DNA of 64,000 bases, taken from contig CAZYMH010000001.1 in assembly GCA_964648105.1 (NCBI GenBank), forward strand, positions 79,999 to 143,998. Reading direction: 5' to 3'. This DNA comes from an uncultured Candidatus Saccharibacteria bacterium. Its GTDB lineage: Bacteria > Patescibacteriota > Saccharimonadia > Saccharimonadales > 2-12-FULL-41-12. Below the pieces are notes generated by a model that saw nothing but the letters and a program-made list of their open reading frames with translations, did not search any database and had not been told where the DNA came from. Shown here piece by piece: positions 5,453-61,140 of the stretch. The position numbers and the translations under genes are program-made. The number at the start of each line of letters is the position of its first letter. Position 1 is the stretch's first letter.

Positions 5453-5839
5453 GGGGCTGAATTTTAAGCTCGACATTGGACTTTTACAACCTAGTTTGCA
5501 TACCGCTTATCAGCGTTATAGATAAAACCTTTTAAATGCAAGTTTGAAAGACCGCATTGCTAGCTTCTTCCAAGTTCCTAGCTTTGCACCAGCTGTAGCT
5601 TAATTTGCTTCAGCCGTAGCTAGCTCATACGCCAATAAGAGCTAACTACGCTATATCTTTGGCTCGATAATTTAGTGTCATCTCTGCACTTTAATATTTA
5701 AATTTTAGGAGATGCTTTTTTGAGTTTTTTGTTTGTTTATATAACTCAAAAACTAAGACCCCTAAAAACAAACTATGTATGTAGACGGCTAGGCACAGTA
5801 AACCGATGGACGTGGGGGCAGTACCCACCAGCTCCACCA
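5453..5839 (+). ncRNA. ssrA: transfer-messenger RNA (tmRNA)
   Basis: The 5' end GGGGCTGA...CTCGAC and the 3' end GGACGTGGGGGCAGTACCCACCAGCTCCACCA form the tRNA-Ala-like acceptor/T-arm. An internal candidate tag ORF ends ...SFAPAVA with TAA at 5601-5603. Length 387 nt. Confidence 0.85.
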
Positions 5840-6109: not shown

Positions 6110-7663
6110 GTGAGCGAAAAAATACTTAAATCTGAACAAGAAAATATTGAGTTATTGAATGATGCTTACGGCCCGAGACCCCTTGCTGTTGCACATCTAG
6201 ATGCTCAAAAACTTGCAGCTCAAGATTTTTACGAAGCTGACAGCCAAATTCATCATGTACCACCATCAGCTATTAGTGGTCATTACCCCCATAATTGGCT
6301 GTGGGACGGAGCCAAGAATGCCGAAGTTTATGCTCGATACGGTTATTTTATGTCAGCTAGTAATCAGGTTAAGTCAATTTTAGCTTCACAACATCCAAAT
6401 GGATTTATCCCAAATATGACTTTTGCAAACGATGGCCGAAAACTAGATATTGAACGACGAACATTTACTAACCCCCATAAATCGAGTGATTATTCACAGC
6501 CTGCAATAATTGCCGAAGCTGTCCGTGAAATCTATGAAGGCTGTAAAGCAAATGGACAAGAACTGGAAGGTAAGGACTTTTTAAGAGAAGTTTATCCTAG
6601 CCTAAAAATGTTCTATCAATATTTTTTACGAGAACGTCAAGTTAGTCCAGAAAACTACTTAATATTCAACATTCACCCTTGTGAAACAGGCCGTGACAGT
6701 GACCCAACTTTCAATTTTATTCAGTACAAAAAACCGTTTTGCAGCAGCGGCGAAGATACTCCAACTTATAAAATCGCGATTAATTCAGCTGCCGACTACA
6801 TTGGTAATGTCGCTTTGGGATTTCGCAACAAAAAACACGGTTGGCAAGCCGACCAAGCTCATCAAACCTTCAAATTTTGCGATGTTATGTTTAATTGTTT
6901 ATTTGCCAAAAATTTACGTGACTTGGCCTTAATTGCTGAAGAAAATAATGAGTTTAGTGATGCTATCGAATTCCATAATCATGCCGAAAAATTATCTCAT
7001 CAAATTCAGCAGAAAATGTATATATTTAACCCAGATGATGAAAAATTTGGGTTTTACGGCATAAACTTAACTGGATTTTCTGAATATGATATAGAAGTCT
7101 ACCAAAATAATAATTTAGAGCCTGGCGATCCAGTTTTTTTCAAATCAATTAGTAATTTATTCCCGCTAGTGCTTGACGGTTTAGAGACTACCAAACTGGC
7201 TCAAATTATTGATTTGATAGAAAAAGAATTTACCGATAATTTTATGATACCGACTGTCTCGACCAAAAGCCCCGATTACGACCCTAACTATCGTGGCAGA
7301 AACATGTGGCAAGGGCCAATTTGGTTGTGGATGAATGATTTTGTGATATCAGGAATCGCCGACCAATTATCTAGGCCAGACGTAAGTAATAATCGTGATT
7401 TAGTCCGTAAACTTTCTAATTTGCACACTAAATTAATGACTTCGTCTAAAGAGTTAGTGACATACAAAAATAACTCGCTACATGATCGTAGTTTTATAAT
7501 CAAAGCAGTTAACAAATTTATACCTCATGCACTGCGTTCGCAATCAAATTACGATGGACCATACCAAAATTTTGCCGAATTTTTCAGCCCCCAAACTGGT
7601 GTTGGCTATCGAACTAGACCATTTGCTGGATCATCAATTGCTTGTCGAAAGAGACAATATTAA
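6110..7663 (+). CDS. (alpha/alpha)6-barrel glycoside hydrolase, GH63/GH37-like (glucosidase / debranching-type)
   Basis: GTG start. Motifs WLWDGAKNA, QHPNGFIPN, ETGRDSDPTF and WQGPIWLWMNDF resemble the GH63/trehalase-like fold. Confidence 0.65.
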   Translation: MSEKILKSEQENIELLNDAYGPRPLAVAHLDAQKLAAQDFYEADSQIHHVPPSAISGHYPHNWLWDGAKNAEVYARYGYFMSASNQVKSILASQHPNGFIPNMTFANDGRKLDIERRTFTNPHKSSDYSQPAIIAEAVREIYEGCKANGQELEGKDFLREVYPSLKMFYQYFLRERQVSPENYLIFNIHPCETGRDSDPTFNFIQYKKPFCSSGEDTPTYKIAINSAADYIGNVALGFRNKKHGWQADQAHQTFKFCDVMFNCLFAKNLRDLALIAEENNEFSDAIEFHNHAEKLSHQIQQKMYIFNPDDEKFGFYGINLTGFSEYDIEVYQNNNLEPGDPVFFKSISNLFPLVLDGLETTKLAQIIDLIEKEFTDNFMIPTVSTKSPDYDPNYRGRNMWQGPIWLWMNDFVISGIADQLSRPDVSNNRDLVRKLSNLHTKLMTSSKELVTYKNNSLHDRSFIIKAVNKFIPHALRSQSNYDGPYQNFAEFFSPQTGVGYRTRPFAGSSIACRKRQY

Positions 7664-8076
7664 AAGCTAGAATGAAGTTTTTGTAATAATGTTTTTAGAT
7701 GCTCAATATCTCTATTCGACAAATTATCAAACTCCGATAAATAAAAGCCATCCAGAGCATTGCTGGCTTTGATAAACATTTCTTGGCCCTTGCGAGTAAT
7801 ATAAATCAGGTGTTTACGATTGTCGCGAGCCTGCCCAATCTCTACCAAGTTTTTGTCAACCAAAATCCCAATTTGACGACTTATACTAGCTTCAGTCTGG
7901 GCCAAATTAGCTGCAATTTCCTTTTGCTGGATACCTGGTTGCTCGTTTAGAACCATCAGCAACCGATATTGAGCCATACTTATGCCATAGCGTTCAAGTA
8001 AAATTTGATCTGATTTATTAGCAAAGTAAATAGCTAGTCGATCGATCAGGTAAGGCACATTTTGTTTATACCCCAT
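7660..8076 (-). CDS. MarR-family transcriptional regulator
   Basis: 138 aa with a winged-HTH pattern (MAQYRLLMVL...QKEIAANLAQTEASISRQIGILVDKNLV...DNRKHLIYITRKG). Confidence 0.85.
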   Translation of the reverse strand: MGYKQNVPYLIDRLAIYFANKSDQILLERYGISMAQYRLLMVLNEQPGIQQKEIAANLAQTEASISRQIGILVDKNLVEIGQARDNRKHLIYITRKGQEMFIKASNALDGFYLSEFDNLSNRDIEHLKTLLQKLHSSF

Positions 8077-8120: not shown

Positions 8121-8138
8121 TACTTAACACGTTAAGTA
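8121..8138 (+). repeat. 18-nt near-palindrome TACTTAACACGTTAAGTA, copy 1
   Basis: Exact 18-mer. It sits 2 nt downstream of the rsmA stop and upstream of marR. See findings. Confidence 0.95.
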
Positions 8139-8139
8139 T

Positions 8140-8934
8140 TTAGTCGAATTTAGTTTCTAGCTCCAGCCACTGGTGGATTGATAACTCCTGCGGCCGTGCA
8201 TTTGGATTAATACTTAACGTGTTAAGTATTTCGGTGATTTCGGCTTTTGACATACTCATACCCGAACTTAGTGAGTTAACCAGCGTTTTACGTTTATTCA
8301 TAAAACTACATTTTAAAATGCGATTAAGATTTTTTTGATTACTGTTCTCATCTAATGAATGCTCTAGCCTATTCATAATCACTACCCTTGAATCAACTTT
8401 AGGCGGCGGCGAAAATTTATCGGCCTTTACAACTATTCCTAGCTGGCAGTCAAAATTCATCTGGCTATACACACTCAAAAGCGACATCTGCCCTGGGCTA
8501 GCACAAATCCGCTCAGCTACTTCTTTTTGAATTAATAGCACAATTACTTTAGGTCGGTTTTCTAAATCTCCTAAAATCCTAATTAATTTAGAAGTTAAAT
8601 AATATGGTATATTAGCCACAACCTTATAATCTTGTTTAACTTGCGAGAAATTAAATTTCAATATATCTTGGTTAACTAACTCTAACTTATCAGCATCTTG
8701 ACCAAATAATTTTTGGCGGGTTTTGTGTAAGTTTTCGTGAAGTTTTGAGTCAAATTCTACTGCTACGACTTTACGAGCTTTTTTGAGTAATTCGCCAGTT
8801 AGAGTACCTAGCCCAGGGCCAACTTCGATAACTAAATCATGATCATTTATCTGAGCGTAGTCGGCAATTTGCTCAAGTATATCTCGATCGGTGAGCCAAT
8901 GTTGACCCAGTGATTTATCAGGTTTATGGTCCAT
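8140..8934 (-). CDS. rsmA: 16S rRNA (adenine1518/1519-N6)-dimethyltransferase
   Basis: SLGQHWL, VIEVGPGLGTLT (SAM site) and NIPYY motifs. I preferred the ATG at 8934, 2 nt after the upstream stop. The track start at 8961 is a TTG. Confidence 0.9.
   Translation of the reverse strand: MDHKPDKSLGQHWLTDRDILEQIADYAQINDHDLVIEVGPGLGTLTGELLKKARKVVAVEFDSKLHENLHKTRQKLFGQDADKLELVNQDILKFNFSQVKQDYKVVANIPYYLTSKLIRILGDLENRPKVIVLLIQKEVAERICASPGQMSLLSVYSQMNFDCQLGIVVKADKFSPPPKVDSRVVIMNRLEHSLDENSNQKNLNRILKCSFMNKRKTLVNSLSSGMSMSKAEITEILNTLSINPNARPQELSIHQWLELETKFD
8211..8228 (-). repeat. 18-nt near-palindrome, copy 2 (inside rsmA, encodes ILNTLS)
   Basis: The plus strand reads TACTTAACGTGTTAAGTA. The sense strand of rsmA reads ATA CTT AAC ACG TTA AGT. 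Confidence 0.95.
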
Positions 8935-8936
8935 TT

Positions 8937-10310
8937 TTACCACCAATGATGTGAAATCCAAAAACTATAAGCACCTTGCCAACCACCATAAGTTCGCTTG
9001 GCATACGAGTTGCACCAGCTTAGTTGAGTAACTGGATTAGTCAAATAATCTCCGCCAGCGGAAGCCATTTTACTAGCAGGTAAAGCCTGGCAAAGTCCAT
9101 AGGCTCCACTGCTGGCATTGCCTGCTCCTGGTCGCCAACCTGATTCGCGACCGACTATATAATCAACCGCTGTGTAGTCACCAGGTGAAATCCCCGCAGC
9201 AGCCATAATACTTGCTTTGTCAGATGAGACATTGACATTCGATGGAACGGTTGGGGCTTTTTTACCGCGAGCAATAACTTTATTGACTGGTTGAGCCAAA
9301 ACAACTTCGTGCAAAATTTTCTTTTGTCCATCTGGCAAAACTTCATAAATTATTGCCCTAATACCATCACTGCCTTCATTTTTCGTGGTAGTTTTACCCA
9401 AATCCGTATTTGGGTCATCGACAGTATCGATTCCTCTTTTGATTAATTCCTGCGAAGAAGCTAGTTGTTTACCTGGTTCGGTTACAAAAACGATTTGGTT
9501 AGTTTGGATTTTGGTTGACGGGTCTGGCAAGATGGACATATTACTAAATGAAATATTACGCTCCTTAGCCAAGTCGGCCACTGTGTCGGCTCTTGTGCGA
9601 ATATCATATGTGGTGCCATAAAGATTTAGTTTAACAGGTAGCGAACGATCAAGCTTAATTTGCGTCCCTAAAATACCGTCTTTGATTGATTCATTTGGAC
9701 TAATAACGTCCAGCTTATCCTCTGGGTAAACCGTGTAGCCAGCTTTTTTGGCGATAACTACTGGCAATGTATCGGCTGTTTTTAGGACTGTTTTTTTGCC
9801 TGTATCATCGATCAAGGTCGTCAATTTTGCTTTGTAGACATTTATACTGAATTTCTCGCTGACAATCTGAGTATCAAGACTTGGCTCGACTAAATCACCG
9901 TCATTAATTTTTACATCTGTGCGGTCTAGAAACTCTTTTACTGTCGTTGCTCGGGTTGGCACAAACTGACTTTTGCCGTCGATAGAATATTGAATAATCC
10001 GCGAATCGGTTGGCTTAACCGATTGACCACCAAAGGCCAAAAAACCAACAATCGACGCCAAAAACAAAAAAATAATTGTTACTAACGGCACTACAAAAGG
10101 ATGCCGATCATTAAACGACTTTTTTATGTTACTTATTTTGACTGGTGGCAAATTTTTTAGGACTGGTCGAAGTTTATTGTTTGTCGATATTACACTAGTC
10201 GGCCTAATCACCAAACCTCTCTTCGGTTTTTTGGTAGAAATAATATCGAGCGTTTTGCCCGAAACTATAGAAGACACGGATTTAGAGTTTTTTGCAGATT
10301 TTTTGGCCAA
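8937..10310 (-). CDS. secreted cell-wall hydrolase, YabE/RpfB-like (DUF348 repeats, G5, lysozyme-like Apf-type C-terminal domain)
   Basis: TTG start preceded by GAGGTAAGG. An N-terminal TM anchor is followed by repeated beta-rich modules. The C-terminus reads GRESGW...SSGAYGLCQ...YGGWQGAYSFWISHHWW. Position next to rsmA matches the Firmicute yabE-ksgA synteny. Confidence 0.7.
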   Translation of the reverse strand: MAKKSAKNSKSVSSIVSGKTLDIISTKKPKRGLVIRPTSVISTNNKLRPVLKNLPPVKISNIKKSFNDRHPFVVPLVTIIFLFLASIVGFLAFGGQSVKPTDSRIIQYSIDGKSQFVPTRATTVKEFLDRTDVKINDGDLVEPSLDTQIVSEKFSINVYKAKLTTLIDDTGKKTVLKTADTLPVVIAKKAGYTVYPEDKLDVISPNESIKDGILGTQIKLDRSLPVKLNLYGTTYDIRTRADTVADLAKERNISFSNMSILPDPSTKIQTNQIVFVTEPGKQLASSQELIKRGIDTVDDPNTDLGKTTTKNEGSDGIRAIIYEVLPDGQKKILHEVVLAQPVNKVIARGKKAPTVPSNVNVSSDKASIMAAAGISPGDYTAVDYIVGRESGWRPGAGNASSGAYGLCQALPASKMASAGGDYLTNPVTQLSWCNSYAKRTYGGWQGAYSFWISHHWW

Positions 10311-18533: not shown

Positions 18534-20753
18534 TTACTTTCTAGGTTCGTGCACAATACTGACTTGCATAGGGACTCCAAATACTTTGTCAGCAGCAACT
18601 TTTATAATTTGCTCATGTGCTGTGGTGCCAAATCTCTTTTTATGAAACATGAATTTGAAACTCACTAAAAGCGTCCCACCCTCTATCCTTGCCGTACTCA
18701 TACGAAGAATGTTACCTAACATTCGATCTACAGAGCCAACACTTTCCCATACAGGCTTCCATTCATCTAGACTCAGTGCTCTGTCGCTAACTGTTTCTGC
18801 AATCTGTACGCTTATTTGTCTCTGCGAGCCCGAAAGCAAGGTTTGCCATTTTTGATCATCTGAGGCAACTGCTATCCATAAGCTCTGGGCAGCTCGAGAC
18901 ATTGCAACATACTGAATCCTCTTACTTTCACATTCAAGCATGTCGTGCCCAGCGATCTTCAGGTTTAAATTTGTCGAATTTTTAGGACACCCGCAAGCAA
19001 GTGTCTTTTCTCGAAATGCGTAAAGGACACCATCATATGTTTCACCTTTAACACCGTGAATAGTTGAGAATACCAATCTGACGTTTTTATGAACTGGATG
19101 ATAGTCAACTGGTTTTTCGTTTTGAACTACAAGCATATTGGCGATAGGTTGATCGTTAGTTGCGGCAACAGTGTAATCATTCTTGATATCGATCGTGACG
19201 TCACTTGAGAGTGCCTTAAGTTGCCATTGATCTATTTTAGAAAGTTGAGAAATTGTTGGCTCCTCGCCAGACAATTGAGCCTCAATTATCTGTAAGTCGG
19301 TATAAAGAACTTTTCTATAGCTATAGGCGTAGCTCTCATCAAGACCGAGCTTACTGAGTAGCTCCGTTTTCATAGCTTCAAGGGTCTGTGCATCGCTGAG
19401 TTTGTACAACATCCTCTCATACGCCTTAAAGGCATTGTATTTATCTCCAGTTGTAACAAAATAAGCAACTTTTAATATTCCCCTTGAATGAGGATGGTCA
19501 AACTCGACTGGCTCAACTTTTAGATTGGGGCTCTCTATACAAAAGGCTCGATATTGAGCCGCGTCTTCTTTGCTTCTTGCTAATACGGCTAAACGTAGTT
19601 CATCGTAATTGTGCGGGTCTTTGGTTGAAATATGTTGAGCGAAGCCATCCACAATTGCCTTGAATTGTAAGCCTGCATCATCGTCTTTAATACTCCAGTT
19701 TATAATCCCAACATCATCGGTGTAATTTAAGCTCTTAGACCCCTCAGCGGGCTTGATATTACCAGTTATCGTATGAGAGTTGAGTGCTTTGCAGATATTT
19801 TGACTATTCCTGAAAGTTCCTGCAATTTCATGATCTAACCAATTATCGTCAGCAACCTTTTGCGTAAAAAGTTCTGGACGAGCAGTATTCCATTCATAAA
19901 TTGCTTGCTGCTCATCTCCAATCATCACGACATTCTCGAGACCGTTATCTATCAAATGATCAAGAATTGCATGCTGTACCTCGGTCATGTCCTGAGCCTC
20001 GTCAATAATGAACACGGGGTAACGTTTGATGATGCTTTTAGTAAGATGGTCGGAGCTGGTCAATGCTTTATACGCAAAATAGTTAGCGTCTGCTTGCGAG
20101 ACCAAGCCTTCCTTATGCTTTGTTTCCTTATAAGCTCTGAGTGCCTGCACGTACTTTGACTCAGTGCCACCATTATTGAACCAAGGGATACTGGCAGCTT
20201 TATCGCCCTTGCGAATAGCTACCGTCATCTTGCCATTATCGCCATGCTTCACATGCCCAAAGTTTGGATATATCCTGCCGTCAATTCCATAATATGTTTT
20301 GTCAAAAATGAATCCGTAATCTAAGTTACTCACACCGCCAAACTGATTGATAACAGTACTGTCTTTTGCCTTAAAAGTACTGAAGGGTTCCCCGACAAGT
20401 TTTGGCCGACCCTCAGGGAATCCCATGTAGACTCCGCCATGCAACAAGAAAAGTTTTTTATTTAAGAATGAGTCTATAGTTTCAATAGAATGAGGGTGGT
20501 TAACTAAGCTAGTGTTACCTCGTGATTTTTGTAGCTTAGTTTTTATTTCGTCTTTAGCAACATTTGTATAAGAGACCATCGCCATTCCTTGCCATGGCTT
20601 GAATGTGGCCTGCCACTTGTCTGCAATACTAATGCAGTATTCGGTGATAAGCGTTGTTTTACCAGTTCCTGCTCTTGCCGATATTATCTGCAACCCAAAG
20701 CGAGGTAATCCGGAACTCCAAAGACTATCAGTCTGTTCTGTCGTTAGCTTCAT
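18534..20753 (-). CDS. UvrD/Rep-type SF1 helicase, GajB-like, with C-terminal extension
   Basis: Walker A ARAGTGKTT, Walker B FIIDEAQDM, GDEQQAIYEW, FRNSQNI, TIHGVKGETYDGV, YVAMSRAAQSLWI. ATG at 20753 (the track start 20756 is a TTG). It overlaps the upstream OLD gene by 26 nt. Confidence 0.8.
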   Translation of the reverse strand: MKLTTEQTDSLWSSGLPRFGLQIISARAGTGKTTLITEYCISIADKWQATFKPWQGMAMVSYTNVAKDEIKTKLQKSRGNTSLVNHPHSIETIDSFLNKKLFLLHGGVYMGFPEGRPKLVGEPFSTFKAKDSTVINQFGGVSNLDYGFIFDKTYYGIDGRIYPNFGHVKHGDNGKMTVAIRKGDKAASIPWFNNGGTESKYVQALRAYKETKHKEGLVSQADANYFAYKALTSSDHLTKSIIKRYPVFIIDEAQDMTEVQHAILDHLIDNGLENVVMIGDEQQAIYEWNTARPELFTQKVADDNWLDHEIAGTFRNSQNICKALNSHTITGNIKPAEGSKSLNYTDDVGIINWSIKDDDAGLQFKAIVDGFAQHISTKDPHNYDELRLAVLARSKEDAAQYRAFCIESPNLKVEPVEFDHPHSRGILKVAYFVTTGDKYNAFKAYERMLYKLSDAQTLEAMKTELLSKLGLDESYAYSYRKVLYTDLQIIEAQLSGEEPTISQLSKIDQWQLKALSSDVTIDIKNDYTVAATNDQPIANMLVVQNEKPVDYHPVHKNVRLVFSTIHGVKGETYDGVLYAFREKTLACGCPKNSTNLNLKIAGHDMLECESKRIQYVAMSRAAQSLWIAVASDDQKWQTLLSGSQRQISVQIAETVSDRALSLDEWKPVWESVGSVDRMLGNILRMSTARIEGGTLLVSFKFMFHKKRFGTTAHEQIIKVAADKVFGVPMQVSIVHEPRK

Positions 20754-22710
20754 CAACTGTACCTGCCTCTGGTTCTGGATCTGGTGTTATCACAAACTCT
20801 ATTGCATCCCGTATGTACTTGGGAACTGTAAATTCAGTTTGGTCAGTCTTGGATAGCAATGCTTCGTGTAGATAGTATGCGTAGTCAGATTTTGAAGTTA
20901 AAAACGCACTATTTGTTCTTGAGCCACCAGACCATTCGGCATCATTAACTAAAAGTGACTTTCCAGCTGGTGCAGTAGCAAATTTTTGTTTCATTTTTTT
21001 GTAGCTGAGTAGTGGGTTTGAAAAATCTAAGTAATCACTGACGAAATCGCTATTAACCTGAGTCTCACTTGAATTTCGAGCCTTGCTCAGGCTGTCAGTT
21101 AATATGGTTTGCATATTTGTATTACCGACTGCACTCAGTAAGAGTTCAAACTCAAATGTACCAAGTCCCTTAAAAGTTTTCAGTGTGTTTGTACCTGTGA
21201 TGCTGGTAACTTCAGTCTTCTTGATGAGATCATCTGCAGTCGCAGGCATAGTATCTGGTTTGGCGTCATCGTCCGTAATGAAGGCACAACGTAAAGGCAG
21301 TCCACCTTCACCAAACAAAGCCTCGAAATGGCTAAAACCGCCTTTAGCACCCAATATCACAATCTCAACACCATTTTCTCTCAAGCCACATCCGATCATC
21401 TCGGAAAAACGCTCAAGTAGAAGGGCTTCGGTTACGCCTTCAACAAAAATGACAGAATTAGCAAAGAGTAATTGGGATCGAGTCACATCTAAGAACTTAT
21501 GCAAATACCTCTTATCATCGTCTTCGATTATCTCAGATAGATGAGAGGGCTGGCCTCCAACATCTTGCTGGGGGTGGCTCATAACAATAATTTTCTCCAC
21601 GTCACTCTTTGCGGTAATTGTTGGCGAGTGTGATGTTACGAATATCTGGTGAGAAGTGATCTTGTTTAACTCTTGGAAGAAGGAATCCTGCAGCTGGGGG
21701 TGTAGGTGGGCTTCGGGCTCTTCGATCAAAAAGAAGCGGTGAACGTGAGCGGTTTCTTCACTTGTGCGAGATAAAACGATACTTGAGTATATGAGATTGT
21801 TAATCCCTAACCCATTACTTGAGAGATTGAGCTTTGAAGCACCGTGGATCCCATGCTCTAAAACGGCTTCTAGCGATCTTAGTAATTCGTCGTTCAAGTT
21901 TGTGGGTGCGAAGTGCAATACATTGTCTGGGAATTTATAGGCACTTGCATACTTGGCAAAATTCTTCCCAGCAGCATCCTCGTGTTTATTACCATCGGTG
22001 GCTTTCTCAAGTAATTCTCTTGCTTTCTCTTTTAGCTCGGGCGGAATCTCTTTTAACTTTTTATGGTCACCATGTCCATAGAGTAATCGCTCTATCTCAA
22101 GACCAATCCGTCTTCGATCAGTACTAAGATCACGTAAAGGTTCAAGGTATATCGATTTCATATAGTCCAATGACTCAGGACTAACGGGATGAGAGAAATC
22201 TTTACCTCCACTAATATCTCGCGACTTATAGCTAAATCTTTTCTTTACGTCATCAAAACCGAAGTTAACTTGATACCTAAGCTTGAATACACCATATTCT
22301 TCGTCATCCTCAGAATCCTCATTGGTATCGATGTCATAGAACATCCCAGGGACGTCGGTATTTTTTCGGCCATGAAAAGTGGCGTCAAACGATACGGTAG
22401 CTGTATCCACATCGCCAAGAAGTCTAGATACATCCTTGTGCTGGATTCGTATTAGGTCTTCTTTTTCTTCATATGTTCCGATGCTGAAAATCAATCGTAG
22501 TGCGTCGACTAACGCACTCTTACCACCATTATTTGGGCCGACAATAACATTTAGGCTTGGGTTAAAGTTGAACGTAGCATCCTTTAAAACGCGGAATCCT
22601 TTTACAGTAAGCTGGCTTAAATAGAAATCAGGCTTAGTGCGTAATACTGCCTCTTCAGCCCCGTCTGGTACGTTTAATTCTTCCGCATTTGGTGTTTCAA
22701 TGTCAGCCAT
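20728..22710 (-). CDS. OLD-family ATP-dependent endonuclease (ABC-type ATPase + TOPRIM), GajA-like
   Basis: Walker A GPNNGGKSALVDAL, Walker B/D-loop FFLIEEPEAHLHPQLQ, TOPRIM Glu VIFVEGVTEALLL and acidic FITDDD. 660 aa. Confidence 0.8.
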   Translation of the reverse strand: MADIETPNAEELNVPDGAEEAVLRTKPDFYLSQLTVKGFRVLKDATFNFNPSLNVIVGPNNGGKSALVDALRLIFSIGTYEEKEDLIRIQHKDVSRLLGDVDTATVSFDATFHGRKNTDVPGMFYDIDTNEDSEDDEEYGVFKLRYQVNFGFDDVKKRFSYKSRDISGGKDFSHPVSPESLDYMKSIYLEPLRDLSTDRRRIGLEIERLLYGHGDHKKLKEIPPELKEKARELLEKATDGNKHEDAAGKNFAKYASAYKFPDNVLHFAPTNLNDELLRSLEAVLEHGIHGASKLNLSSNGLGINNLIYSSIVLSRTSEETAHVHRFFLIEEPEAHLHPQLQDSFFQELNKITSHQIFVTSHSPTITAKSDVEKIIVMSHPQQDVGGQPSHLSEIIEDDDKRYLHKFLDVTRSQLLFANSVIFVEGVTEALLLERFSEMIGCGLRENGVEIVILGAKGGFSHFEALFGEGGLPLRCAFITDDDAKPDTMPATADDLIKKTEVTSITGTNTLKTFKGLGTFEFELLLSAVGNTNMQTILTDSLSKARNSSETQVNSDFVSDYLDFSNPLLSYKKMKQKFATAPAGKSLLVNDAEWSGGSRTNSAFLTSKSDYAYYLHEALLSKTDQTEFTVPKYIRDAIEFVITPDPEPEAGTVDEANDRTD

Positions 22711-25342: not shown

Positions 25343-26887
25343 ATGTTTTCGATTGCATATATTCGAGTGTCTACAGAAGAGCAAGTATTTGGCACTAGCC
25401 TAGAGAGCCAGGAACAAGCGTGTATTGAGTATGCAAAGAAAAATGGCCTACGATTGAGCAAGGAACATATATTTCGAGAAGAAGGCGAATCAGCAAAGCT
25501 ATTAGACAGAACACAACTCCAAAACATGCTGACTTTTGTAAAGAATAACCGTGGCAAGATAGAGGGCTGTATAGTCTGGAAAGTTGATCGACTTGCCCGC
25601 AAGAGCGAATATCACCATGCGATCAAGGGCGTTCTACTCAAATATGGAGTAAAGCTTAAGTCAGTGACAGAGCCGATTGACGACAGCCCTATGGGCTCAT
25701 TAATGGAAGGTGTCTTAGCCGCATTTGCTCAATTTGATAACGATATTCGCACCACTCGTACAGTCACAGGTATGCGTGCCCGAACCATGCAAGGCGGGTG
25801 GCCTCACAGGGCAACATATGGTTACAGGAATAGTAAAACAGTTACGGGTATTAGTACGATCGAACCAGACGAAAACGCTGAAATCGCTAAAAAGTTTCTT
25901 GAGACTTTCTCTACTGGTGCGTACAACTTAAATCAAGCAATATTGCTAGCTAAAAAGCTAGGGATGATCTCAAAGTTAACTGGAAAACCTTATGGCTGGC
26001 AAGGTGTTAAGCATATTTTAAAAAACCCATTGTACGCAGGTTTCATAAGTTCAAGCTTCACAGACGGGTCTTATCTTAAGGGTGTCCATAAGCCTTTGAT
26101 TAAACCAGATATGCATTACAAGATATTGGCGATCATCGATAAACGATTCGAGAAAAACAGTAAACACGCAAAAGAAGACTGGCCACTAAGGGGAGGATTT
26201 TTGAAATGCTTTTACTGTAAACACCCTTTGACAGGTGGTGTACCTAAGGGTCGTGATAAGCACTATCCTCGATATAGCTGCATGAGATGCAGAAAGGTTG
26301 ACGGAGTCAAAGCTAATAGTATGAGTAGAGACAAAACGCACGAAGACTTTATGTCTCTCTTGGCTCAAATTACGCCACGAGAAGACGTTGCCCAAGGTTT
26401 TCGAGAGATAGTACTCCGAACATGGAATAACGACTACAAAGACGCCATAGGTCATCTAAAACGAATTGATTCACAGATCTCTACACTACAGCAGAAGAGA
26501 TCCAGGATTATTGATTTGTTTATTGAAGATAAGCTTTCAGATGAGATGAAGAATCAAAAGCTAAATGAGATCCAAGACAACCTAGCTGATCTTGAGTTCC
26601 AACGCTCAGAGTCTGGTAATGACGTAGCCGACAAGGAGCAAGTAATAGACAGTGCGGTCATGCTCCTAACTCAAGCTGATAAGTTTTGGAATCTGGGAAA
26701 CCTAGAGGTTAGGAAGCAGATCCAAGACATGGTATTTCCTGAAGGTCTGTACTATAGCTTTACTGACGGTTTTGGAACCGTAACTTTAAGCAAATCACAT
26801 CAGTTAATCGAAAAAGTCACCACGAATGGTGACTTAAATCCTAATTTGGTGATCTCACGGGGAATCGAACCCCGATTGCCAGGATGA
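25343..26887 (+). CDS. large serine recombinase (resolvase/invertase N-domain + recombinase + zinc-ribbon domains)
   Basis: N-terminal IAYIRVSTEEQ catalytic-Ser motif, VWKVDRLAR, a recombinase-domain region, a CFYCKH...CMRC zinc ribbon and a coiled-coil. The last 41 nt run antisense through tRNA-Glu. Confidence 0.85.
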   Translation: MFSIAYIRVSTEEQVFGTSLESQEQACIEYAKKNGLRLSKEHIFREEGESAKLLDRTQLQNMLTFVKNNRGKIEGCIVWKVDRLARKSEYHHAIKGVLLKYGVKLKSVTEPIDDSPMGSLMEGVLAAFAQFDNDIRTTRTVTGMRARTMQGGWPHRATYGYRNSKTVTGISTIEPDENAEIAKKFLETFSTGAYNLNQAILLAKKLGMISKLTGKPYGWQGVKHILKNPLYAGFISSSFTDGSYLKGVHKPLIKPDMHYKILAIIDKRFEKNSKHAKEDWPLRGGFLKCFYCKHPLTGGVPKGRDKHYPRYSCMRCRKVDGVKANSMSRDKTHEDFMSLLAQITPREDVAQGFREIVLRTWNNDYKDAIGHLKRIDSQISTLQQKRSRIIDLFIEDKLSDEMKNQKLNEIQDNLADLEFQRSESGNDVADKEQVIDSAVMLLTQADKFWNLGNLEVRKQIQDMVFPEGLYYSFTDGFGTVTLSKSHQLIEKVTTNGDLNPNLVISRGIEPRLPG

Positions 26888-26921
26888 AAACCTGGTGTCC
26901 TAACCGTTAGACGATGAGACC
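26847..26921 (-). tRNA. tRNA-Glu(UUC)
   Basis: Cloverleaf: GGTCTCA/TGAGATC acceptor, anticodon loop TTTTCAT, T-arm CGGGG-TTCGATT-CCCCG, encoded CCA. 75 nt. Confidence 0.9.
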
Positions 26922-32626: not shown

Positions 32627-33271
32627 ATGCCAAGTCGTAACCGAATAAAAGCTTATTCATCAGACAGCTACTACCACATTTATAATAGAGGTGTAAATAA
32701 ACAAAAAATCTTCATAGATGATGAGGATCATCGAGTTTTCCTAAATTTATTCAAACGTTATCTAAGTAAAGCCCCAGTAAAAGACAATAAGGGTAGAGAG
32801 TACGATTGGCTCTATGAACAACTAAAGCTGCTAAGTTATTGCATCATGCCAAACCACTTCCATTTGTTTATTTTTCAGAACGAATCAACAGCCATGGAGC
32901 GGCTTACCCGTCGTGTATTTACATCTTACACTCAATATTTTAATAAAAAATATCATCGAGTCGGGCCACTTTTCCAGAGCCGATATAAAGCATCATTGAT
33001 CCTATCTGAATCATATCTACTCCATATCTCACGCTACATTCATCGAAATCCAAAAGATTATAGCAACTACAAATATTCTAGCTATAAATATTTTTTAGGT
33101 GTCCATGATTGTCCAGAGTGGCTAAATGCCCAAGCATTACTCGATATGTTCGATAACGATACCTCCCACTATCAAGCTTTTGTAGAGGACTATAAGAATT
33201 ATAAAGAAACATTAAACGAAATCTTGCCAGAACTAGCCAACACACATAACCTACAATCTACAAATCCTTAA
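32627..33271 (+). CDS. IS200-like Y1 HUH transposase, REP-associated tyrosine transposase (RAYT) type
   Basis: YHIYNRG, HUH motif MPNHFHLFI and catalytic-Tyr region SRYIHRNP. 214 aa, bracketed by REP-like palindromes. Confidence 0.8.
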   Translation: MPSRNRIKAYSSDSYYHIYNRGVNKQKIFIDDEDHRVFLNLFKRYLSKAPVKDNKGREYDWLYEQLKLLSYCIMPNHFHLFIFQNESTAMERLTRRVFTSYTQYFNKKYHRVGPLFQSRYKASLILSESYLLHISRYIHRNPKDYSNYKYSSYKYFLGVHDCPEWLNAQALLDMFDNDTSHYQAFVEDYKNYKETLNEILPELANTHNLQSTNP

Positions 33272-38057: not shown

Positions 38058-40856
38058 ATGATATTCAAAAATACCGACGTAAACCCACCCGATAAAGGTG
38101 CTGTTCTGCTCTTGCAAGTACCACGTAATAACGAGAAAAAAGAGCTAGCTACTGAGCAAGTTTTGGCGGCCATACATGGGCTACTTACCAAGGCCGAAAC
38201 AATGAGCTTTTTTGCTAGTACAGTTCACGAGAAGATTAGTTTCGAGATTGCTACCTTAAATGGCCGAATCTGCTTCTTTATCTGGACACCCGAACACCTC
38301 AAACAATATGTCCAAGATCAAGTTTATGCCCAATACCCTAGCGTTCACATTTCGGAGGTAGAAGATTACGCTCTGCATAACCAAAATTCGGTCAATATGG
38401 CCTGTGAGCTAAAATTAGCCGCTCCAGACCCTTTGCCTATCAAAACCTTCCCAAGCTTCGAGGTCGACCCATTGGCAGGTGTAACGGCCACTCTAGCTCA
38501 GCTAGACGAAGGCGAAAATGCATGGGTACAAGTGGTCGCTCGGCCCGCCCAGTCTGGCTGGTACAAAAAAAGCGAGCGTTACGCCCAAAATATCAGAGGT
38601 GGAGCTAAGAATAATGGTGCTTACACTGGGCTATGGGGAGCTTTATCGGCCCCACCTGAGCAAAAAAATACCACGACAACTCTTGCTGAGCATGAATCGG
38701 TCCGAGCCAGAGCCGCCGAAGAAAAAAGCCATAAACTGGCCTATCAAACCACTATTCGCATAATTTATAGCGGTAATTCGTCTGAATCTCAAGCCAGAAT
38801 GCGTTTACAATCGGTTATTGCTTCATTTAAACAGTTCAACTCAACATACCTAAACGGTTTTGTAGCTGGCAAAATGACTCAGCGGCACGAGGATATAGTT
38901 GCCTACCAAAACCGAAATTTTAGCCGCAAAACTATGATTCTGAACATCGAAGAGCTAGCGAGCGTCTACCATCTGCCACACACCAATGTTGAGACCCCTA
39001 ATATATTATGGGCCAATGCCACGACCGCCGAGCCACCAGCCAATTTACCAATCAAACTAACCGAAGAAGTTAGCCCAATCGCGGTGACTAATTTTCGGGG
39101 CCATAATACACTATTTGGCTTAACCAGAAACGATCGCGGTAGGCATGTGTATATTATTGGTCAAACTGGCACTGGTAAATCGGGTTTACTCGAGCTTCTT
39201 ACTATCTGTGACATCGATACCAACCATGGATTTGCGGTTATCGACCCGCACGGTGATTATGCTTTGAGTGTGCTACAAAGTATCCCAGAAAGTCGTATGA
39301 ACGACGTAATTTACTTCAACCCCGCCGATAGTCAATTTCCGATCCCCTTTAACCCTTTGGAAGTATCCGACCCTAAGCTCAAAAGTCATACTTGCTCAGA
39401 GCTAATTGGCGTCTTAAAACGAATGTTTGATTCTTGGGGTCCACGGCTAGAATATATCTTAAGGTACAGTATTTTGGCGTTGCTTGATTACCCCGAAGCT
39501 ACCATGCTCGACATCACCAAAATTTTAACCGACAAAAAGTTTCGTAACGATGTCTTGCAGTACGTCAATGACCCAGTTGTCAAGCAGTTTTGGACGGTCG
39601 AATTTGCTAGCTGGAACGATAAATTTGCTGCCGAAGCTGTCGCCCCAGTACTCAATAAAATCGGAGCCTTTACGGCTAACCCTTTGGTACGTAACATTGT
39701 CGGCCAGCCACACGGAAGTTTTAATATCCGCCAAATCATGGACGAAGGCAAAATCTTAATTGTCAATTTGTCGCGAGGTTTGATTGGCGAGGACAACGCC
39801 GCCCTTCTTGGCTCGCTGATGGTTACTAAAATCCAGATGGCCGCCATGTCGCGGGCCGATATCCCCAAAGAAGCTCGTAAGCCATTTTACCTATATGTTG
39901 ACGAATTCCAGAACTTCGCCACCGATAGTTTTGCAACGATTTTGTCAGAAGCACGTAAATATTCGCTTAATTTGACTGTTGCCAACCAATATACCGCCCA
40001 AATGATGCAAAGTGTTCGCGATGCGGTATTTGGCAACGTTGGGACGATCGTTAGCTTCCGTACAAGTGCCGACGATGCCCGTAGTATGCTCAAATATTTC
40101 GAGCCAAAATTTACCGATTACGACTTAGTTCACATGCATAATCGCCATTTTGTGGTTAGCATGACTATCGAGGGCGAAAAAGTTCAAGCCTTTTCGGCCG
40201 TTACCAAAGATTTAACTCCTGTAAACTTTGATAACACTGCAGAGATTATCGCCAAAAGTCGTGAACTTTATGCCACCGATATCGAATCAGTCGAAAAATA
40301 CATTGATAGTCGTTATCACCTCAAACCAACTGTTGGCCAAAAACCTAGTTTTTCTAGCAAAAGACCTTCTAGGCCTAAACCACCTGCCCCTATCGAAGCC
40401 GTAGAGCCTAGCCTTGAACAAACTCCGCCCCCACCTAGCTCCCCAGAAACTAATTTTGAGAAATCTCCCGAAAAATCTTTCGAAACTCTCGATGACAAAC
40501 ACGAAATTACCAAATCAAGCTCCAAACAATCTGTTATTTCGGCTCTAGCTAAACTCGCCGAAAATGCCACCACCAAACCTAGGCGTAAACGCAAACGAAC
40601 CCGAAAAAACAAAAATAAAGTAACATCTGTCGACTCATCACAGCAGCCTCAAAATATCAGTCCTCCCAAATCTGATCTGCCAAAAGCCAAGCCAACTATC
40701 AAAAGTGAGCCTAAAATTGAAGCCTCGAAGCCTCAAAAACAATCACTAGCAGAACCAAAATCTCAAACACCTAAACCAGTTGCCAATAAATCACCTAAAA
40801 AAGACGATATGGTAGACTTCAGCGGCAACGACGAAATCGTAATCAAACTCCGCTAA
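38058..40856 (+). CDS. type IV secretion coupling protein-like (TraD/VirD4/HerA-FtsK superfamily) ATPase with long K/P/S-rich tail
   Basis: Walker A IIGQTGTGKSGL, Walker B FYLYVDEFQNF, and a ~330-aa N-terminal domain of unknown function. The last ~190 aa are low-complexity basic/proline-rich. Confidence 0.65.
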   Translation: MIFKNTDVNPPDKGAVLLLQVPRNNEKKELATEQVLAAIHGLLTKAETMSFFASTVHEKISFEIATLNGRICFFIWTPEHLKQYVQDQVYAQYPSVHISEVEDYALHNQNSVNMACELKLAAPDPLPIKTFPSFEVDPLAGVTATLAQLDEGENAWVQVVARPAQSGWYKKSERYAQNIRGGAKNNGAYTGLWGALSAPPEQKNTTTTLAEHESVRARAAEEKSHKLAYQTTIRIIYSGNSSESQARMRLQSVIASFKQFNSTYLNGFVAGKMTQRHEDIVAYQNRNFSRKTMILNIEELASVYHLPHTNVETPNILWANATTAEPPANLPIKLTEEVSPIAVTNFRGHNTLFGLTRNDRGRHVYIIGQTGTGKSGLLELLTICDIDTNHGFAVIDPHGDYALSVLQSIPESRMNDVIYFNPADSQFPIPFNPLEVSDPKLKSHTCSELIGVLKRMFDSWGPRLEYILRYSILALLDYPEATMLDITKILTDKKFRNDVLQYVNDPVVKQFWTVEFASWNDKFAAEAVAPVLNKIGAFTANPLVRNIVGQPHGSFNIRQIMDEGKILIVNLSRGLIGEDNAALLGSLMVTKIQMAAMSRADIPKEARKPFYLYVDEFQNFATDSFATILSEARKYSLNLTVANQYTAQMMQSVRDAVFGNVGTIVSFRTSADDARSMLKYFEPKFTDYDLVHMHNRHFVVSMTIEGEKVQAFSAVTKDLTPVNFDNTAEIIAKSRELYATDIESVEKYIDSRYHLKPTVGQKPSFSSKRPSRPKPPAPIEAVEPSLEQTPPPPSSPETNFEKSPEKSFETLDDKHEITKSSSKQSVISALAKLAENATTKPRRKRKRTRKNKNKVTSVDSSQQPQNISPPKSDLPKAKPTIKSEPKIEASKPQKQSLAEPKSQTPKPVANKSPKKDDMVDFSGNDEIVIKLR

Positions 40857-45655: not shown

Positions 45656-45777
45656 TTTACCCTCGTTTCACCCACCTTATGTGATTAACATAACTATTTT
45701 AGCATATTGTGGGCATGATGTTCAAAATATGCTATCAATTGACTGATTGCCTACAAGTAATTATGCTAATAAACATA

Positions 45778-46158: not shown

Positions 46159-46182
46159 GCCAGAATCTGGTATAGTATAGCT

Positions 46183-47849: not shown

Positions 47850-48492
47850 GTCGATTTACAATCGCGTCTTCTGGTTGAAGGATAGCTATGTTTTCAGACC
47901 CAAGCGTGCGGATATCTTTTTCAATCCAATGATAATGTGTACAACCTAGAACAATTACATCGGCATTTGATTTTTTGATAAATTCGACTGTTTTGGCGAT
48001 TTTGGCGTGACTTATTTGGTTATTTTCTATCATGGCCGCCCACTGACTACAATCTGGCTCAATTATTGTAATGCCTTTTGCATATAAATCTTTAAGCTCC
48101 TGATAGCGTTTACTTTTTAGGGTCGATGGAGTGGCACAAACCGCAATAACTTTGGATTTGGTAAGCAAAGAAGCAGGCTTAATCATTGGTTCGAGTCCAA
48201 TAATCGGCACAGTTATAAACTCCCTTAGATCTTGAATTATGTTAGTGGTAACGGTGTTACAAGCCACAACAATTACGTCACAAGATTTACTTAACGTGTT
48301 AAGTATTGGTAGAACAATCTTCAGTAACTCATCTGGGGATTTATTGCCGTATGGTAAATTTTGAGCGTCTCTCTCGAAAATAACATCTAGGCCTGGAAAA
48401 TTATCAGATATAGCTTTGGCTACCGACTTCCCGCCTACGCCAGAGTCAAATACGCCAACAGTTAGTTTTTTAGGCATTGGTTTTGGCAGCAT
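47821..48492 (-). CDS. murI: glutamate racemase
   Basis: VFDSGVGG, VVACNT and LGCTHY catalytic Cys motifs. Confidence 0.9.
   Translation of the reverse strand: MLPKPMPKKLTVGVFDSGVGGKSVAKAISDNFPGLDVIFERDAQNLPYGNKSPDELLKIVLPILNTLSKSCDVIVVACNTVTTNIIQDLREFITVPIIGLEPMIKPASLLTKSKVIAVCATPSTLKSKRYQELKDLYAKGITIIEPDCSQWAAMIENNQISHAKIAKTVEFIKKSNADVIVLGCTHYHWIEKDIRTLGSENIAILQPEDAIVNRLKQVLGQLD
48288..48305 (-). repeat. 18-nt near-palindrome, copy 3 (inside murI, encodes ILNTLS)
   Basis: The plus strand reads TACTTAACGTGTTAAGTA. The murI sense strand reads ATA CTT AAC ACG TTA AGT. Confidence 0.95.
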
Positions 48493-53844: not shown

Positions 53845-55122
53845 ATGACTGATAAACAAGTTGCAGATTTGATTATAAAAGAACAAAAACGCCAAAACGA
53901 AGGTTTAGAATTAATTCCTAGCGAAAATTATGTCAGTAGTGATGTGTTGGAAGCGATGGGCAGTATTTTCACTAACAAATATTCGGAAGGTTACCCAAAT
54001 AAACGCTACTATGGCGGCCAAGAAAATACTGATGCCCTAGAACAATTAGCGATTGATCGAGCCAAAAAACTTTTTGGAGCCGACCATGCTAACGTGCAGC
54101 CCCACTCAGGAGCTCAAGCCAATGAGGCTGTCTATCATGCTTGGCTAGAACCGGGCGATAATGTTTTGGCCATGGATTTAAGCCACGGCGGACACCTAAC
54201 CCACGGAAGTCCTGTAACGGTTTTGGCTCGAACCTATAACTTTATACGATACAAAATGAAGGACCCTGCCACTGGCGAAATTGATTATGAAGAGTTACGC
54301 CGACTGGCCAAAAAGCATAAACCTAAAATTATTCTGGCAGGTTTTAGTGCATACCCTCGGGAGCTCGATTATCAAAAATTTGCCGAAATTGGCAATGAAG
54401 TAGGAGCCTTGCTGGTGGCCGATATGGCTCATGTTGCTGGTTTGATTGCTGGTGGCGTCGCCAAAAACCCGTTTGACTGTGGCTTTCATGTTATCACCGC
54501 AACAACCCATAAAACTCTGCGAGGGCCTAGAGGTGGATTGATTTTGTCGAAAGGCACCGTGTCTAATCCACTAAAAAAACCAGAGAAAACCATCGATAAT
54601 ATTCCAACTTTGATCGACCGCACGGTATTTCCGGGCGTTCAAGGTGGACCTCACATGCATATTATTGCAGCGAAGGCAGTAGCTTTTGGCGAGGCACTAC
54701 AGCCAGAATTTAAGGCGTATGCGGAGCAAACTGTAAAGAATGCCTATGTTTTGGCTGAGGAGCTAAAAAAGCGTGGCTTCAAATTAATTACTGGTGGCAC
54801 GTCTAATCACTTAATTTTGTGTGATATTTATTCTAGTTTTGGGATTGATGGTGATGTAGCCGAAAAAGCACTCGATAAAATCGGTTTAACGCTCAATAAA
54901 AACACTATTGCCGATGACCCTTTGCCGCCATTTAGACCTAGTGGTATTAGGCTAGGAACACCTGCTATAACTACTCGCGGTATGACCGATAAAGACATGA
55001 TTAAAATTGCCGAATGGATGGAAACTGCTATCAAAAATCGCGATAATGAAAAAATACTTAACACGTTAAGTAAAAATGTAAAAGAATTTGCCACGCAATT
55101 TCCTTTGCCAAATACCAAATAA
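53845..55122 (+). CDS. glyA: serine hydroxymethyltransferase
   Basis: LIPSENY, YYGG, SHGGHLTHG, TTHKTLRGPRGG (PLP Lys). SD AAAGGAGA. Confidence 0.95.
   Translation: MTDKQVADLIIKEQKRQNEGLELIPSENYVSSDVLEAMGSIFTNKYSEGYPNKRYYGGQENTDALEQLAIDRAKKLFGADHANVQPHSGAQANEAVYHAWLEPGDNVLAMDLSHGGHLTHGSPVTVLARTYNFIRYKMKDPATGEIDYEELRRLAKKHKPKIILAGFSAYPRELDYQKFAEIGNEVGALLVADMAHVAGLIAGGVAKNPFDCGFHVITATTHKTLRGPRGGLILSKGTVSNPLKKPEKTIDNIPTLIDRTVFPGVQGGPHMHIIAAKAVAFGEALQPEFKAYAEQTVKNAYVLAEELKKRGFKLITGGTSNHLILCDIYSSFGIDGDVAEKALDKIGLTLNKNTIADDPLPPFRPSGIRLGTPAITTRGMTDKDMIKIAEWMETAIKNRDNEKILNTLSKNVKEFATQFPLPNTK
55055..55072 (+). repeat. 18-nt near-palindrome, copy 4 (inside glyA, encodes ILNTLS)
   Basis: Exact TACTTAACACGTTAAGTA, read in frame as ATA CTT AAC ACG TTA AGT. 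Confidence 0.95.
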
Positions 55123-60603: not shown

Positions 60604-61137
60604 ATGAATTTGCTATATGTAACAGGCAACAAAAATAAAGCCAAATTTATAAGACAGAATTTTGATTTTGATTTCGAAGTTTATGACTTGTCTTTGGACG
60701 AAATTCAATCGCTTAATCCTGATGATATTATCAAACATAAAGTTATCCAAGCCTACAAGCATATCAAGCAGCCTGTGTTTGTCGAAGACACTTGTTTGTT
60801 TATAAATGAACTCGGTAATTTACCAGGGCCATTTATCAAATTCTTTATAAATGAGTTAGGCCTAAACAAAATTTGTGACATGATAAATAACGATCGTAGT
60901 GCAAAAGCAGTAAGCACAATCGGTTATTATGATGGCAAAAATCTACATATTTTTCAGCGAGAATTAGCAGGCCAAATTAGCTTATCGCCAAAAGGCCAAA
61001 ATGGATTTGGTTGGGACAAAATTTTTATTATTAACGGCCAAAAACAAACTAATGCTCAATTAACAGATAGAAATTATCTTAATTTCTATAAATCACTCAA
61101 ACCATTTGACGAACTAAAAAATTACTTAACACGTTAA
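60604..61137 (+). CDS. rdgB: non-canonical purine NTP pyrophosphatase (HAM1/RdgB family)
   Basis: LLYVTGNKNK, VEDTCL and GFGWDKIF motifs. 177 aa. Confidence 0.8.
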   Translation: MNLLYVTGNKNKAKFIRQNFDFDFEVYDLSLDEIQSLNPDDIIKHKVIQAYKHIKQPVFVEDTCLFINELGNLPGPFIKFFINELGLNKICDMINNDRSAKAVSTIGYYDGKNLHIFQRELAGQISLSPKGQNGFGWDKIFIINGQKQTNAQLTDRNYLNFYKSLKPFDELKNYLTR

Positions 61138-61140
61138 GTA
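61123..61140 (+). repeat. 18-nt near-palindrome, copy 5 (spans rdgB stop, abuts convergent gene stop)
   Basis: Exact TACTTAACACGTTAAGTA. Here it is read as TAC TTA ACA CGT TAA, so the motif supplies the stop codon. Confidence 0.95.

Follow-up and report, generated by a model that had tools for sequence, protein, structure and literature searches.

The stretch of DNA analysed here, called the window, comprises 64,000 nucleotides of contig CAZYMH010000001.1 from an uncultured Candidatus Saccharibacteria bacterium (Saccharimonadales). It contains five exact copies of an 18-bp near-palindrome, TACTTAACACGTTAAGTA, referred to below as the motif. The motif is far from chance, is specific to one clade, and is linked to marR, a gene for a winged-helix regulator of the MarR family. 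It is predicted to be the binding site of a homodimeric winged-helix protein. From the sequence comparisons described below, the product of the adjacent marR gene is the best-supported binder, and this proposal is considered reasonably probable.

The copies of the motif and the genes concerned are arranged as follows.

Motif copy 1, 8121..8138, + strand: intergenic, 1 nucleotide (nt) past the rsmA stop (8140-8142) and 44 bp before the marR ATG (8076).
Motif copy 2, 8211..8228, - strand: in the 3' region of rsmA, 134 bp upstream of the marR ATG; translated as ILNTLS.
Motif copy 3, 48288..48305, - strand: in codons 62-68 of murI (glutamate racemase), read as ILNTLS.
Motif copy 4, 55055..55072, + strand: at the 3' end of glyA, some 20 codons ahead of the stop; translated as ILNTLS.
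Motif copy 5, 61123..61140, + strand: gives the TAA stop of Ham1/rdgB (61135-61137, motif positions 13-15).
marR, 7660-8076, - strand: a 138-residue MarR-family winged-helix regulator (Pfam MarR and MarR_2, above cut-offs).
rsmA, 8140-8961, - strand: assigned by Pfam/NCBIfam.
murI, 47821-48492, - strand: assigned by TIGR00067 (159.8, over the cut-off).
glyA, 53845-55122, + strand: assigned by Pfam/NCBIfam.
Ham1/rdgB, 60604-61137, + strand: assigned by Pfam/NCBIfam.

An initial annotation of the window had judged that five exact copies could not be due to chance. Dinucleotide-preserving shuffles bear this out, with 0.04 +/- 0.20 matches expected and the 10 strand-matches of the window reached in 0 of 100 shuffles. 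The five copies are accompanied by no degenerate ones at 1-3 mismatches, and a scan of the window with the 14-bp core CTTAACNNGTTAAG returned the same five sites and none extra. The names given earlier to the genes (rsmA, marR, murI, glyA, and rdgB) agree with Pfam and NCBIfam. Translation likewise reproduces the reading ILNTLS that had been reported for all three intragenic copies (in rsmA, murI, and glyA). Copy 5 supplies the rdgB stop codon and abuts the stop of a convergent open reading frame (ORF) at 61141-61770, as had been described. The gap between the rsmA stop and copy 1, which had been given as 2 nt, is 1 nt.

The palindrome consists of two perfect 8-bp arms with an asymmetric 2-bp centre between them. 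The AC form of the centre is on the + strand in the copies at 8121, 55055, and 61123 and on the - strand in those at 8211 and 48288. TAA is present in four of the six reading frames across the motif. Copies 1 and 2 are 90 bp apart, measured centre to centre, and a comparable pair 88 bp apart occurs in L055, one of the related loci (numbered with an L) that were compared with the window. The convergent murB gene starts 2 bp beyond glyA.

The flanks of the window copies have in common an A-rich 5' side and a T-rich 3' side and are otherwise unrelated, in keeping with the earlier statement that the motif does not belong to a larger repeated element. Across sites, this bias covers three flanking positions on each side; A occupies positions -3 to -1 in 50-70% of cases within genes and in 60-80% outside genes. 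Because the bias is found both inside and outside genes, the full consensus is taken to be aAA-TACTTAAC-NN-GTTAAGTA-TTt, which is about 24 bp long. The palindrome extends into the A-tract and T-tract flanks by 3.4 bp on average; in 18 of 108 cases the extension is at least 7 bp.

A search of one-genome-per-species contigs (596 Gb) found the exact 18-mer in 90 stretches from 60 assemblies; for 51 of these, the label is Saccharibacteria, Saccharimonadales, or Patescibacteria. About six GC-rich matches correspond to the chance expectation for a set of this size. There are 1-7 exact copies per assembly, and contigs of 373-776 kb have 1-3. In generalised form, the motif recurs in about 50 related species. 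Copies may cluster, as in the window (5 in 53 kb) and in a 538-kb contig (3 in 46 kb). The near-variants among related loci differ mainly in the central dinucleotide. In a metagenome scan with exact arms and a free centre, the matches listed include at least 60 with AA/TT, at least 36 with AT, at least 13 with TA, and at least 5 with AC/GT. The motif had been thought to be undescribed. For the full 18-mer this stands, since it was found in no paper of the library searched; the core TTAAC-N2-GTTAA, however, is identical to the published operator of the repressors AdcR and ZitR (PMC6372160).

A few contigs with other labels have the motif together with genes or synteny of the Saccharibacterial type: L089 (labelled Candidatus Binatia), L038 and L079 (“bacterium”), and L060 (Mucilaginibacter). 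Such features among these contigs are the glyA site, the rsmA-marR pair, and the dnaA-rnpA-yidC-jag cluster. They are probably misbinned or mislabelled Saccharibacteria.

The initial annotation had suggested looking for the motif at orthologous positions in relatives. Such conservation was found when the ORFs around all sites were clustered, which defines recurrent neighbourhoods. A site is present at the glyA 3' end or in the glyA-murB gap in 11 genome and 5 metagenome loci. At least 17 loci from other species have a site in the folD/murI neighbourhood, either within murI or in folD, which lies upstream of it. Another recurrent position is at the rsmA stop, upstream of marR, and a site at an rdgB homologue also occurs in L048. 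At the origin cluster dnaA-(dnaN)-rnpA-yidC-jag, sites are found in L002, L034, L079, and four metagenome loci. Further neighbourhoods are those of recX, an AspRS-like gene (aspS), rluB, alaS, tilS, tsaC, alkA, rsmD, apbE, metG, and murJ.

The positions are orthologous by neighbourhood, yet they float. One species may have the site in folD and another in murI; it may lie inside glyA or just past it; and in the origin cluster it may be before rnpA, at the rnpA end, or past jag. The 199 classifiable sites comprise 112 intragenic ones, 47 between tandem genes, 32 between convergent genes, and 8 between divergent genes. Thus, sites other than those of marR avoid promoters. Intragenic sites are evenly distributed along genes, and sites between tandem genes are mostly 1-20 bp past the upstream stop.

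MarR is the only gene family recurrently found downstream of the motif (13 loci, against at most 5 for any other). The window MarR has 28 sequence matches among MarR-family entries of the PDB. Its recognition helix, QTEASISRQ (residues 60-68), aligns with the helix “LDKAAVSRTV” of 3nrv. Among 13 MarR homologues with 31-82% identity, the block QQKEIA..L.QTEASISRQIG is invariant. Of the 150 best representatives of 50%-identity clusters, 109 have QTEAS(I/V)SRQ. The predicted reading head has thus stayed the same while the remainder of the protein has diverged to about 31% identity. An invariant reading head together with an invariant operator is what is predicted for a cognate pair.

A hidden Markov model of this subfamily found 19 MarR ORFs across all sampled loci, and the motif is just upstream in nearly all of them. 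Each of the 19 has a site or a symmetric variant, either 5-47 bp ahead of the start codon or farther upstream. Loci with the site upstream of marR are L006, L023, L039, L041, L058, L070, L155, L160, L197, L210, L216, and L231; variant sites occur at the same place in L215, L051, L232, and L234. Of these, L215, L216, L231, L232, and L234 were obtained by MarR or RsmA protein and not by the motif; L051 was obtained by another site. In all loci fetched by MarR or RsmA protein in which marR is present, the site or a close variant lies 5-47 bp ahead of the marR start codon.

L216: site 40 bp upstream of the marR ATG, both arms exact, centre GC.
L231: exact site 39 bp upstream of the marR ATG.
L215, 9936-9953: site 47 bp upstream of the marR ATG, reading TACTTAGC-AA-GCTAAGTG; the substitution in one arm is mirrored in the other.
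L232: site 5 bp upstream of the marR ATG, with 2 mismatches.
L234: site 20 bp upstream of the marR ATG, with 2 mismatches.
L051: 2 mismatches, upstream of marR.

The mirrored operator of L215 may be a weakened autoregulatory site or may reflect a shift in specificity. Two other sites in the same locus retain TTAAC. Conversely, two loci picked by RsmA, L233 and L235, have no marR after rsmA, and in their approximately 20 kb neither the 18-mer (at up to 3 mismatches) nor the core (at up to 1) was found. The glyA site is absent from the L233 contig too. Among the candidate binders named in the initial annotation, the adjacent MarR is the one favoured by three observations, namely the upstream site in every sampled lineage, the invariant helix, and the joint presence or absence of motif and marR after rsmA.

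Some members of the family have additional features. The MarR homologues P0010-P0013 form a branch with a Cys/His-rich C-terminal extension. In L232 (5332-7107), the marR of this branch is followed in tandem by a major facilitator superfamily (MFS) transporter and a short-chain dehydrogenase. The Cys/His-rich tail and these neighbours are hints of a redox, metal, or efflux-linked signal.

A second line of evidence concerns the level at which the motif is maintained. It occurs in ORFs in both orientations, read as LNTLS in 44 cases and as LNVLS in 18. The arm codons are fixed and the central codon is variable (K/T/M/R/L/V). An example is found in glyA. At the aligned position, 46 of the 120 closest GlyA homologues read LNxLS and most of the remainder LNxLR. 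Proteins with and without the site are of equal length and show no indel; because of this, the site is taken to have arisen by substitution and not by insertion. The glyA loci of L218, L219, and L220 were chosen by protein alone and belong to genomes of 52-53% GC. All three keep the site as CTT-AAC-NNG-TTA-AG(T/G), using rare synonymous codons, which with the local codon usage have a chance of P about 1e-4 to 9e-4 per genome. The LNKLR form of GlyA also keeps the 14-bp core. Since rare synonymous codons hold the site, selection must, judging by codon usage, act on the DNA rather than on the peptide.

The RNA form of the motif offers little structure. Its hairpins have energies of -3.5 to -7.7 kcal/mol and z-scores of -1.9 to +0.1, no better than shuffles. 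A terminator scan of the window did not list the motif sites and found ordinary GC-rich terminators elsewhere, and no Rfam family was found at the motif sites. Taken together, the two orientations, the codons, the lack of an indel, and the weak hairpins argue for a recognition site in double-stranded DNA with two-fold symmetry.

In the proposed mechanism, the recognition helix QTEASISRQ of each MarR monomer would read one 8-bp arm, TACTTAAC. The arm centres are 10 bp apart, which would place both on one face of the helix, with the 2-bp centre largely free to vary and the wings touching the A/T-rich flanks. The copy at 8121, probably aided by that at 8211, would lie over or beside the marR promoter and cause autorepression, to be relieved by a ligand or a redox signal. 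We infer from this arrangement that marR is autoregulated; copy 1 is proposed as its autoregulatory operator, and copy 2 is possibly a second one. The copies in murI, in glyA, and at the rdgB stop seem unlike the operators of classical promoters. They would be equally strong sites that are retained by selection on DNA. Protein bound at such non-promoter sites might act as a conditional roadblock or boundary for transcription, at convergent ends and after stops, or as a chromosomal landmark. We infer that the distribution of sites would fit a roadblock, boundary, or landmark better than classical repression.

A more far-reaching version of this model can be considered. A MarR-family protein may have been recruited in Saccharimonadales as a site-specific landmark or transcription-boundary factor, analogous in type to ParB, Noc, MatP, or SlmA and with about 5-15 perfect sites. 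These would be kept by synonymous-codon selection in essential housekeeping genes and at convergent ends, and the promoter of the regulator itself would be one site among them. On present comparisons this version is unlikely, though not far-fetched.

Several observations weigh against MarR as the binder. Its link with the motif is positional, so marR could be a target and not the source of the binding protein. The comparison of presence and absence of the motif and of marR after rsmA covers a handful of loci of about 20 kb. Most copies are outside promoters, which is atypical for a MarR regulon. Five perfect copies with no weak sites resemble a set of loading or landmark sites more than a graded regulon. 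Finally, the window MarR is a generic member of its family and not the AdcR equivalog (NCBIfam NF038251, 16.6 bits against a cut-off of 175).

If marR is a target, a different dimeric DNA-binding protein would bind the site. Two candidates flank the glyA site in every species: an XRE-type helix-turn-helix (HTH) domain fused to MurA (52177-53700) and an HTH_19-DUF3467 protein (56213-56752). A dedicated architectural protein would explain the non-promoter majority of copies, and both HTH genes are syntenic with the most conserved family of sites. However, the promoters of the two genes have no motif, both genes are present in L220 and in S. epibionticum whatever the state of the site, and consistent adjacency of gene and site combined with an invariant helix is seen for MarR only. 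This alternative is improbable. Another alternative, of the ParB/Noc kind raised in the initial annotation, is that the motif is a lineage-specific centromere, a variant of parS that loads a Saccharibacterial ParB or recruits SMC, the copies marking a chromosomal domain. The size of the palindrome is like that of parS, its copies are few per genome, tolerated in genes, clustered (5 in 53 kb; 3 in 46 kb), and, in the window, all perfect with none weaker; in several loci they lie beside dnaA-rnpA-yidC-jag. ParA and ParB are encoded in Saccharibacteria, as by SEML1_0183/0184 of S. epibionticum, which are classed as essential or growth-defective. Canonical parS (TGTTNCACGTGAAACA) with at most 1 mismatch was seen nowhere in 1.47 Mb of related loci. 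Since ParAB exists and canonical parS is unseen in the sampled DNA, the idea is retained, as quite improbable. It is opposed by the search of the window for parS, which gave nothing better than 2 mismatches, at chance level, and by the different length and arms of the motif. No ParB or ParA gene occurs in the loci around about 215 sites, and neither these nor DnaA are among the window genes. With Spo0J and Soj of B. subtilis as queries, tblastn had no matches in the genome and metagenome loci L001-L212 (about 1.4 Mb), and a DnaA control on the same loci found 3 genome and 3 metagenome loci. In the complete genome of S. epibionticum, for which the coordinates of the last listed genes suggest a size of about 864 kb, the genes that host sites lie at -2, +50, -136, -144, -161, -165, -198, -204, -221, -224, and -391 kb from dnaA. 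Most are thus 136-224 kb away, with rsmD near the terminus and parAB at +180 kb. This mapping puts the window region about 200-220 kb from dnaA, and no GC-skew switch was found within the window. A segregation site is expected to be universal, yet about 20 kb around rsmA in each of two relatives yielded no copy of the motif, which tracks marR instead. A literature search for Saccharibacteria with ParB or parS returned nothing relevant. Thus, from the initial proposal of a set of sites for a dimeric protein, the general idea and the adjacent MarR are favoured, and ParB/Noc is not, as there is no parB or parA near the sites and the motif is not parS.

Other alternatives do not involve a regulator. 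The motif might act in RNA, as a bidirectional intrinsic terminator or as a stabiliser of mRNA 3' ends similar to repetitive extragenic palindromes (REPs). The intergenic copies are mostly directly past stops and between convergent genes, and A-tract and T-tract flanks often extend the palindrome, which speaks for such a role. Yet the AU-rich hairpin cannot be told from shuffles, ordinary terminators of the genome are GC-rich, terminator stems are not conserved in sequence between species, over half of the copies are in ORFs and spread evenly along genes, and Rfam has no family at the sites; an RNA function is very improbable. Rated lowest is the reading that the motif is a DNA uptake sequence or a small mobile palindrome, such as a REP with its REP-associated tyrosine transposase (RAYT), a miniature inverted-repeat transposable element (MITE), or an in-frame insert of the Rickettsia palindromic element type. 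Known uptake sequences occur roughly once per kb, with hundreds to thousands per genome. The 1-7 exact copies per genome found here are far fewer, and the uptake signal that the initial annotation had also considered was dropped for this reason. A mobile origin finds some encouragement in a Y1 (IS200-like) transposase gene within the window (32627-33271), but no copy of the motif is within 15 kb of it, no insertion is seen in the GlyA alignments, different species share orthologous positions, and the 10 single matches in viral contigs are near the chance rate, which was roughly estimated. Uptake finds some support in the natural competence described for Saccharibacteria (PMC10633639).

Several specific readings were rejected. 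An origin of the motif in phages or plasmids was discarded with the viral-contig matches at about chance, and an in-frame mobile insert because the GlyA alignments are gap-free. The asymmetric central dinucleotide and a recombinase gene at 25343-26887 suggested a crossover site for a serine recombinase; this was rejected because species without the island that carries this gene have the sites at orthologous positions, and because recombination between sites would delete or invert essential genes. An operator of the LacI/CcpA type was rejected because the centre of the palindrome is not CG, and a LexA box because most sites are outside promoters.

The MurA at 52177-53700 (- strand) has an N-terminal XRE-type HTH (HTH_3, E=7e-17), a fusion conserved in S. 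epibionticum (SEML1_0687) and in every relative examined. The protein at 56213-56752 (+ strand) combines HTH_19/HTH_31 with DUF3467 and is divergent from murB. The block of HTH-murA, glyA, murB, and the HTH gene is syntenic across the clade (L218-L220).

The window also contains other features. The region from about 18500 to 45000 is a probable integrated mobile island, with a GC content of 44-47% compared with about 38% elsewhere, and has zero copies of the motif. Within it is a complete Gabija defence pair (18534-22710), both genes on the - strand: GajB, which is UvrD-like (18534-20756), and GajA, an OLD-type ATPase-TOPRIM protein (20728-22710), with PADLOC E-values of 5e-93 and 2e-91. The island also encodes surface proteins with PKD/DUF11 domains, a VirD4/HerA-like ATPase (38058-40856), the Y1 transposase (32627-33271), and the large serine recombinase (25343-26887), whose 3' end overlaps a tRNA-Glu (26847-26921). 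Beside a histidine kinase with a seven-transmembrane N-terminus lie two adjacent response-regulator receiver genes that stand alone, both without an output domain (45709-46545 and 40957-43119). A gene for transfer-messenger RNA at 5453-5839 (+ strand) was detected by Rfam with 73.6 bits and was not reported by ARAGORN on the window.

Saccharibacteria and other Patescibacteria are largely uncultured. We know of no experimentally defined pair of regulator and operator in these groups, a statement for which no systematic search was made. The QTEAS(I/V)SRQ subfamily of MarR and the palindrome aAA-TACTTAAC-NN-GTTAAGTA-TTt are offered as a candidate pair. The motif also provides a remarkably clear example of codon preference being overridden, in essential genes such as glyA, folD/murI, and rsmA, by selection on the DNA itself. 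If the intragenic copies are functional, they would show how the minimal genome of an epibiont organises transcription or the nucleoid with very few DNA-binding proteins. In practice, the motif can serve as a marker for contigs of this clade, misbinned ones included.

Among known systems, AdcR and ZitR, the zinc-responsive repressors of streptococci and lactococci, have the most similar site. Their operator is TTAACYRGTTAA, in which a 2-bp spacer separates two 5-bp inverted repeats; one or two copies of it overlap the -35 and -10 boxes of the regulator's own promoter (PMC6372160). Motif positions 4-15, TTAACACGTTAA, contain the identical core, and AdcR and ZitR are homodimers of the MarR fold, the regulator class of the window candidate. 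The window motif differs in its 8-bp arms with A/T flanks and in its AC centre; centres in the clade are mostly A-containing or R-Y, not Y-R. In addition, no connection with zinc was seen, and most copies of the motif are found within genes or at their 3' ends.

The operators of MarR proteins in general (MarR/marO, OhrR) are likewise pseudo-palindromes of 16-20 bp before the regulator's own gene, sometimes duplicated, and bound by a winged-helix dimer. HucR, for instance, has 8-bp half-sites that are 2 bp apart. Here, in contrast, operator and recognition helix are frozen across a clade whose MarR proteins diverge to about 31% identity, and extra perfect copies are kept in coding DNA by selection for synonymous codons.

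The sites of chromosome-organising proteins (parS for ParB, the Noc-binding site, the SlmA-binding site, and matS for MatP) are also short palindromes with few to tens of copies, conserved inside genes, often absent from promoters, and nearly all-or-none in quality. The motif differs from parS in sequence; no gene of the ParB family is associated with it, and it is not confined to the origin in the mapped relative. The DNA uptake sequences of Neisseria, the uptake signal sequences of Pasteurellaceae, and REP/RAYT systems are short motifs scattered through genomes, and REPs favour gene 3' ends and convergent gaps. In comparison, the copy number of the motif is orders of magnitude lower, its positions are orthologous, its hairpin in RNA or single-stranded DNA is weak, and no RAYT is associated. 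The motif and its candidate binder would be placed in the class of MarR regulators and their operators, in which they stand out by an operator frozen throughout the clade and by its upkeep at the level of codons in housekeeping genes.

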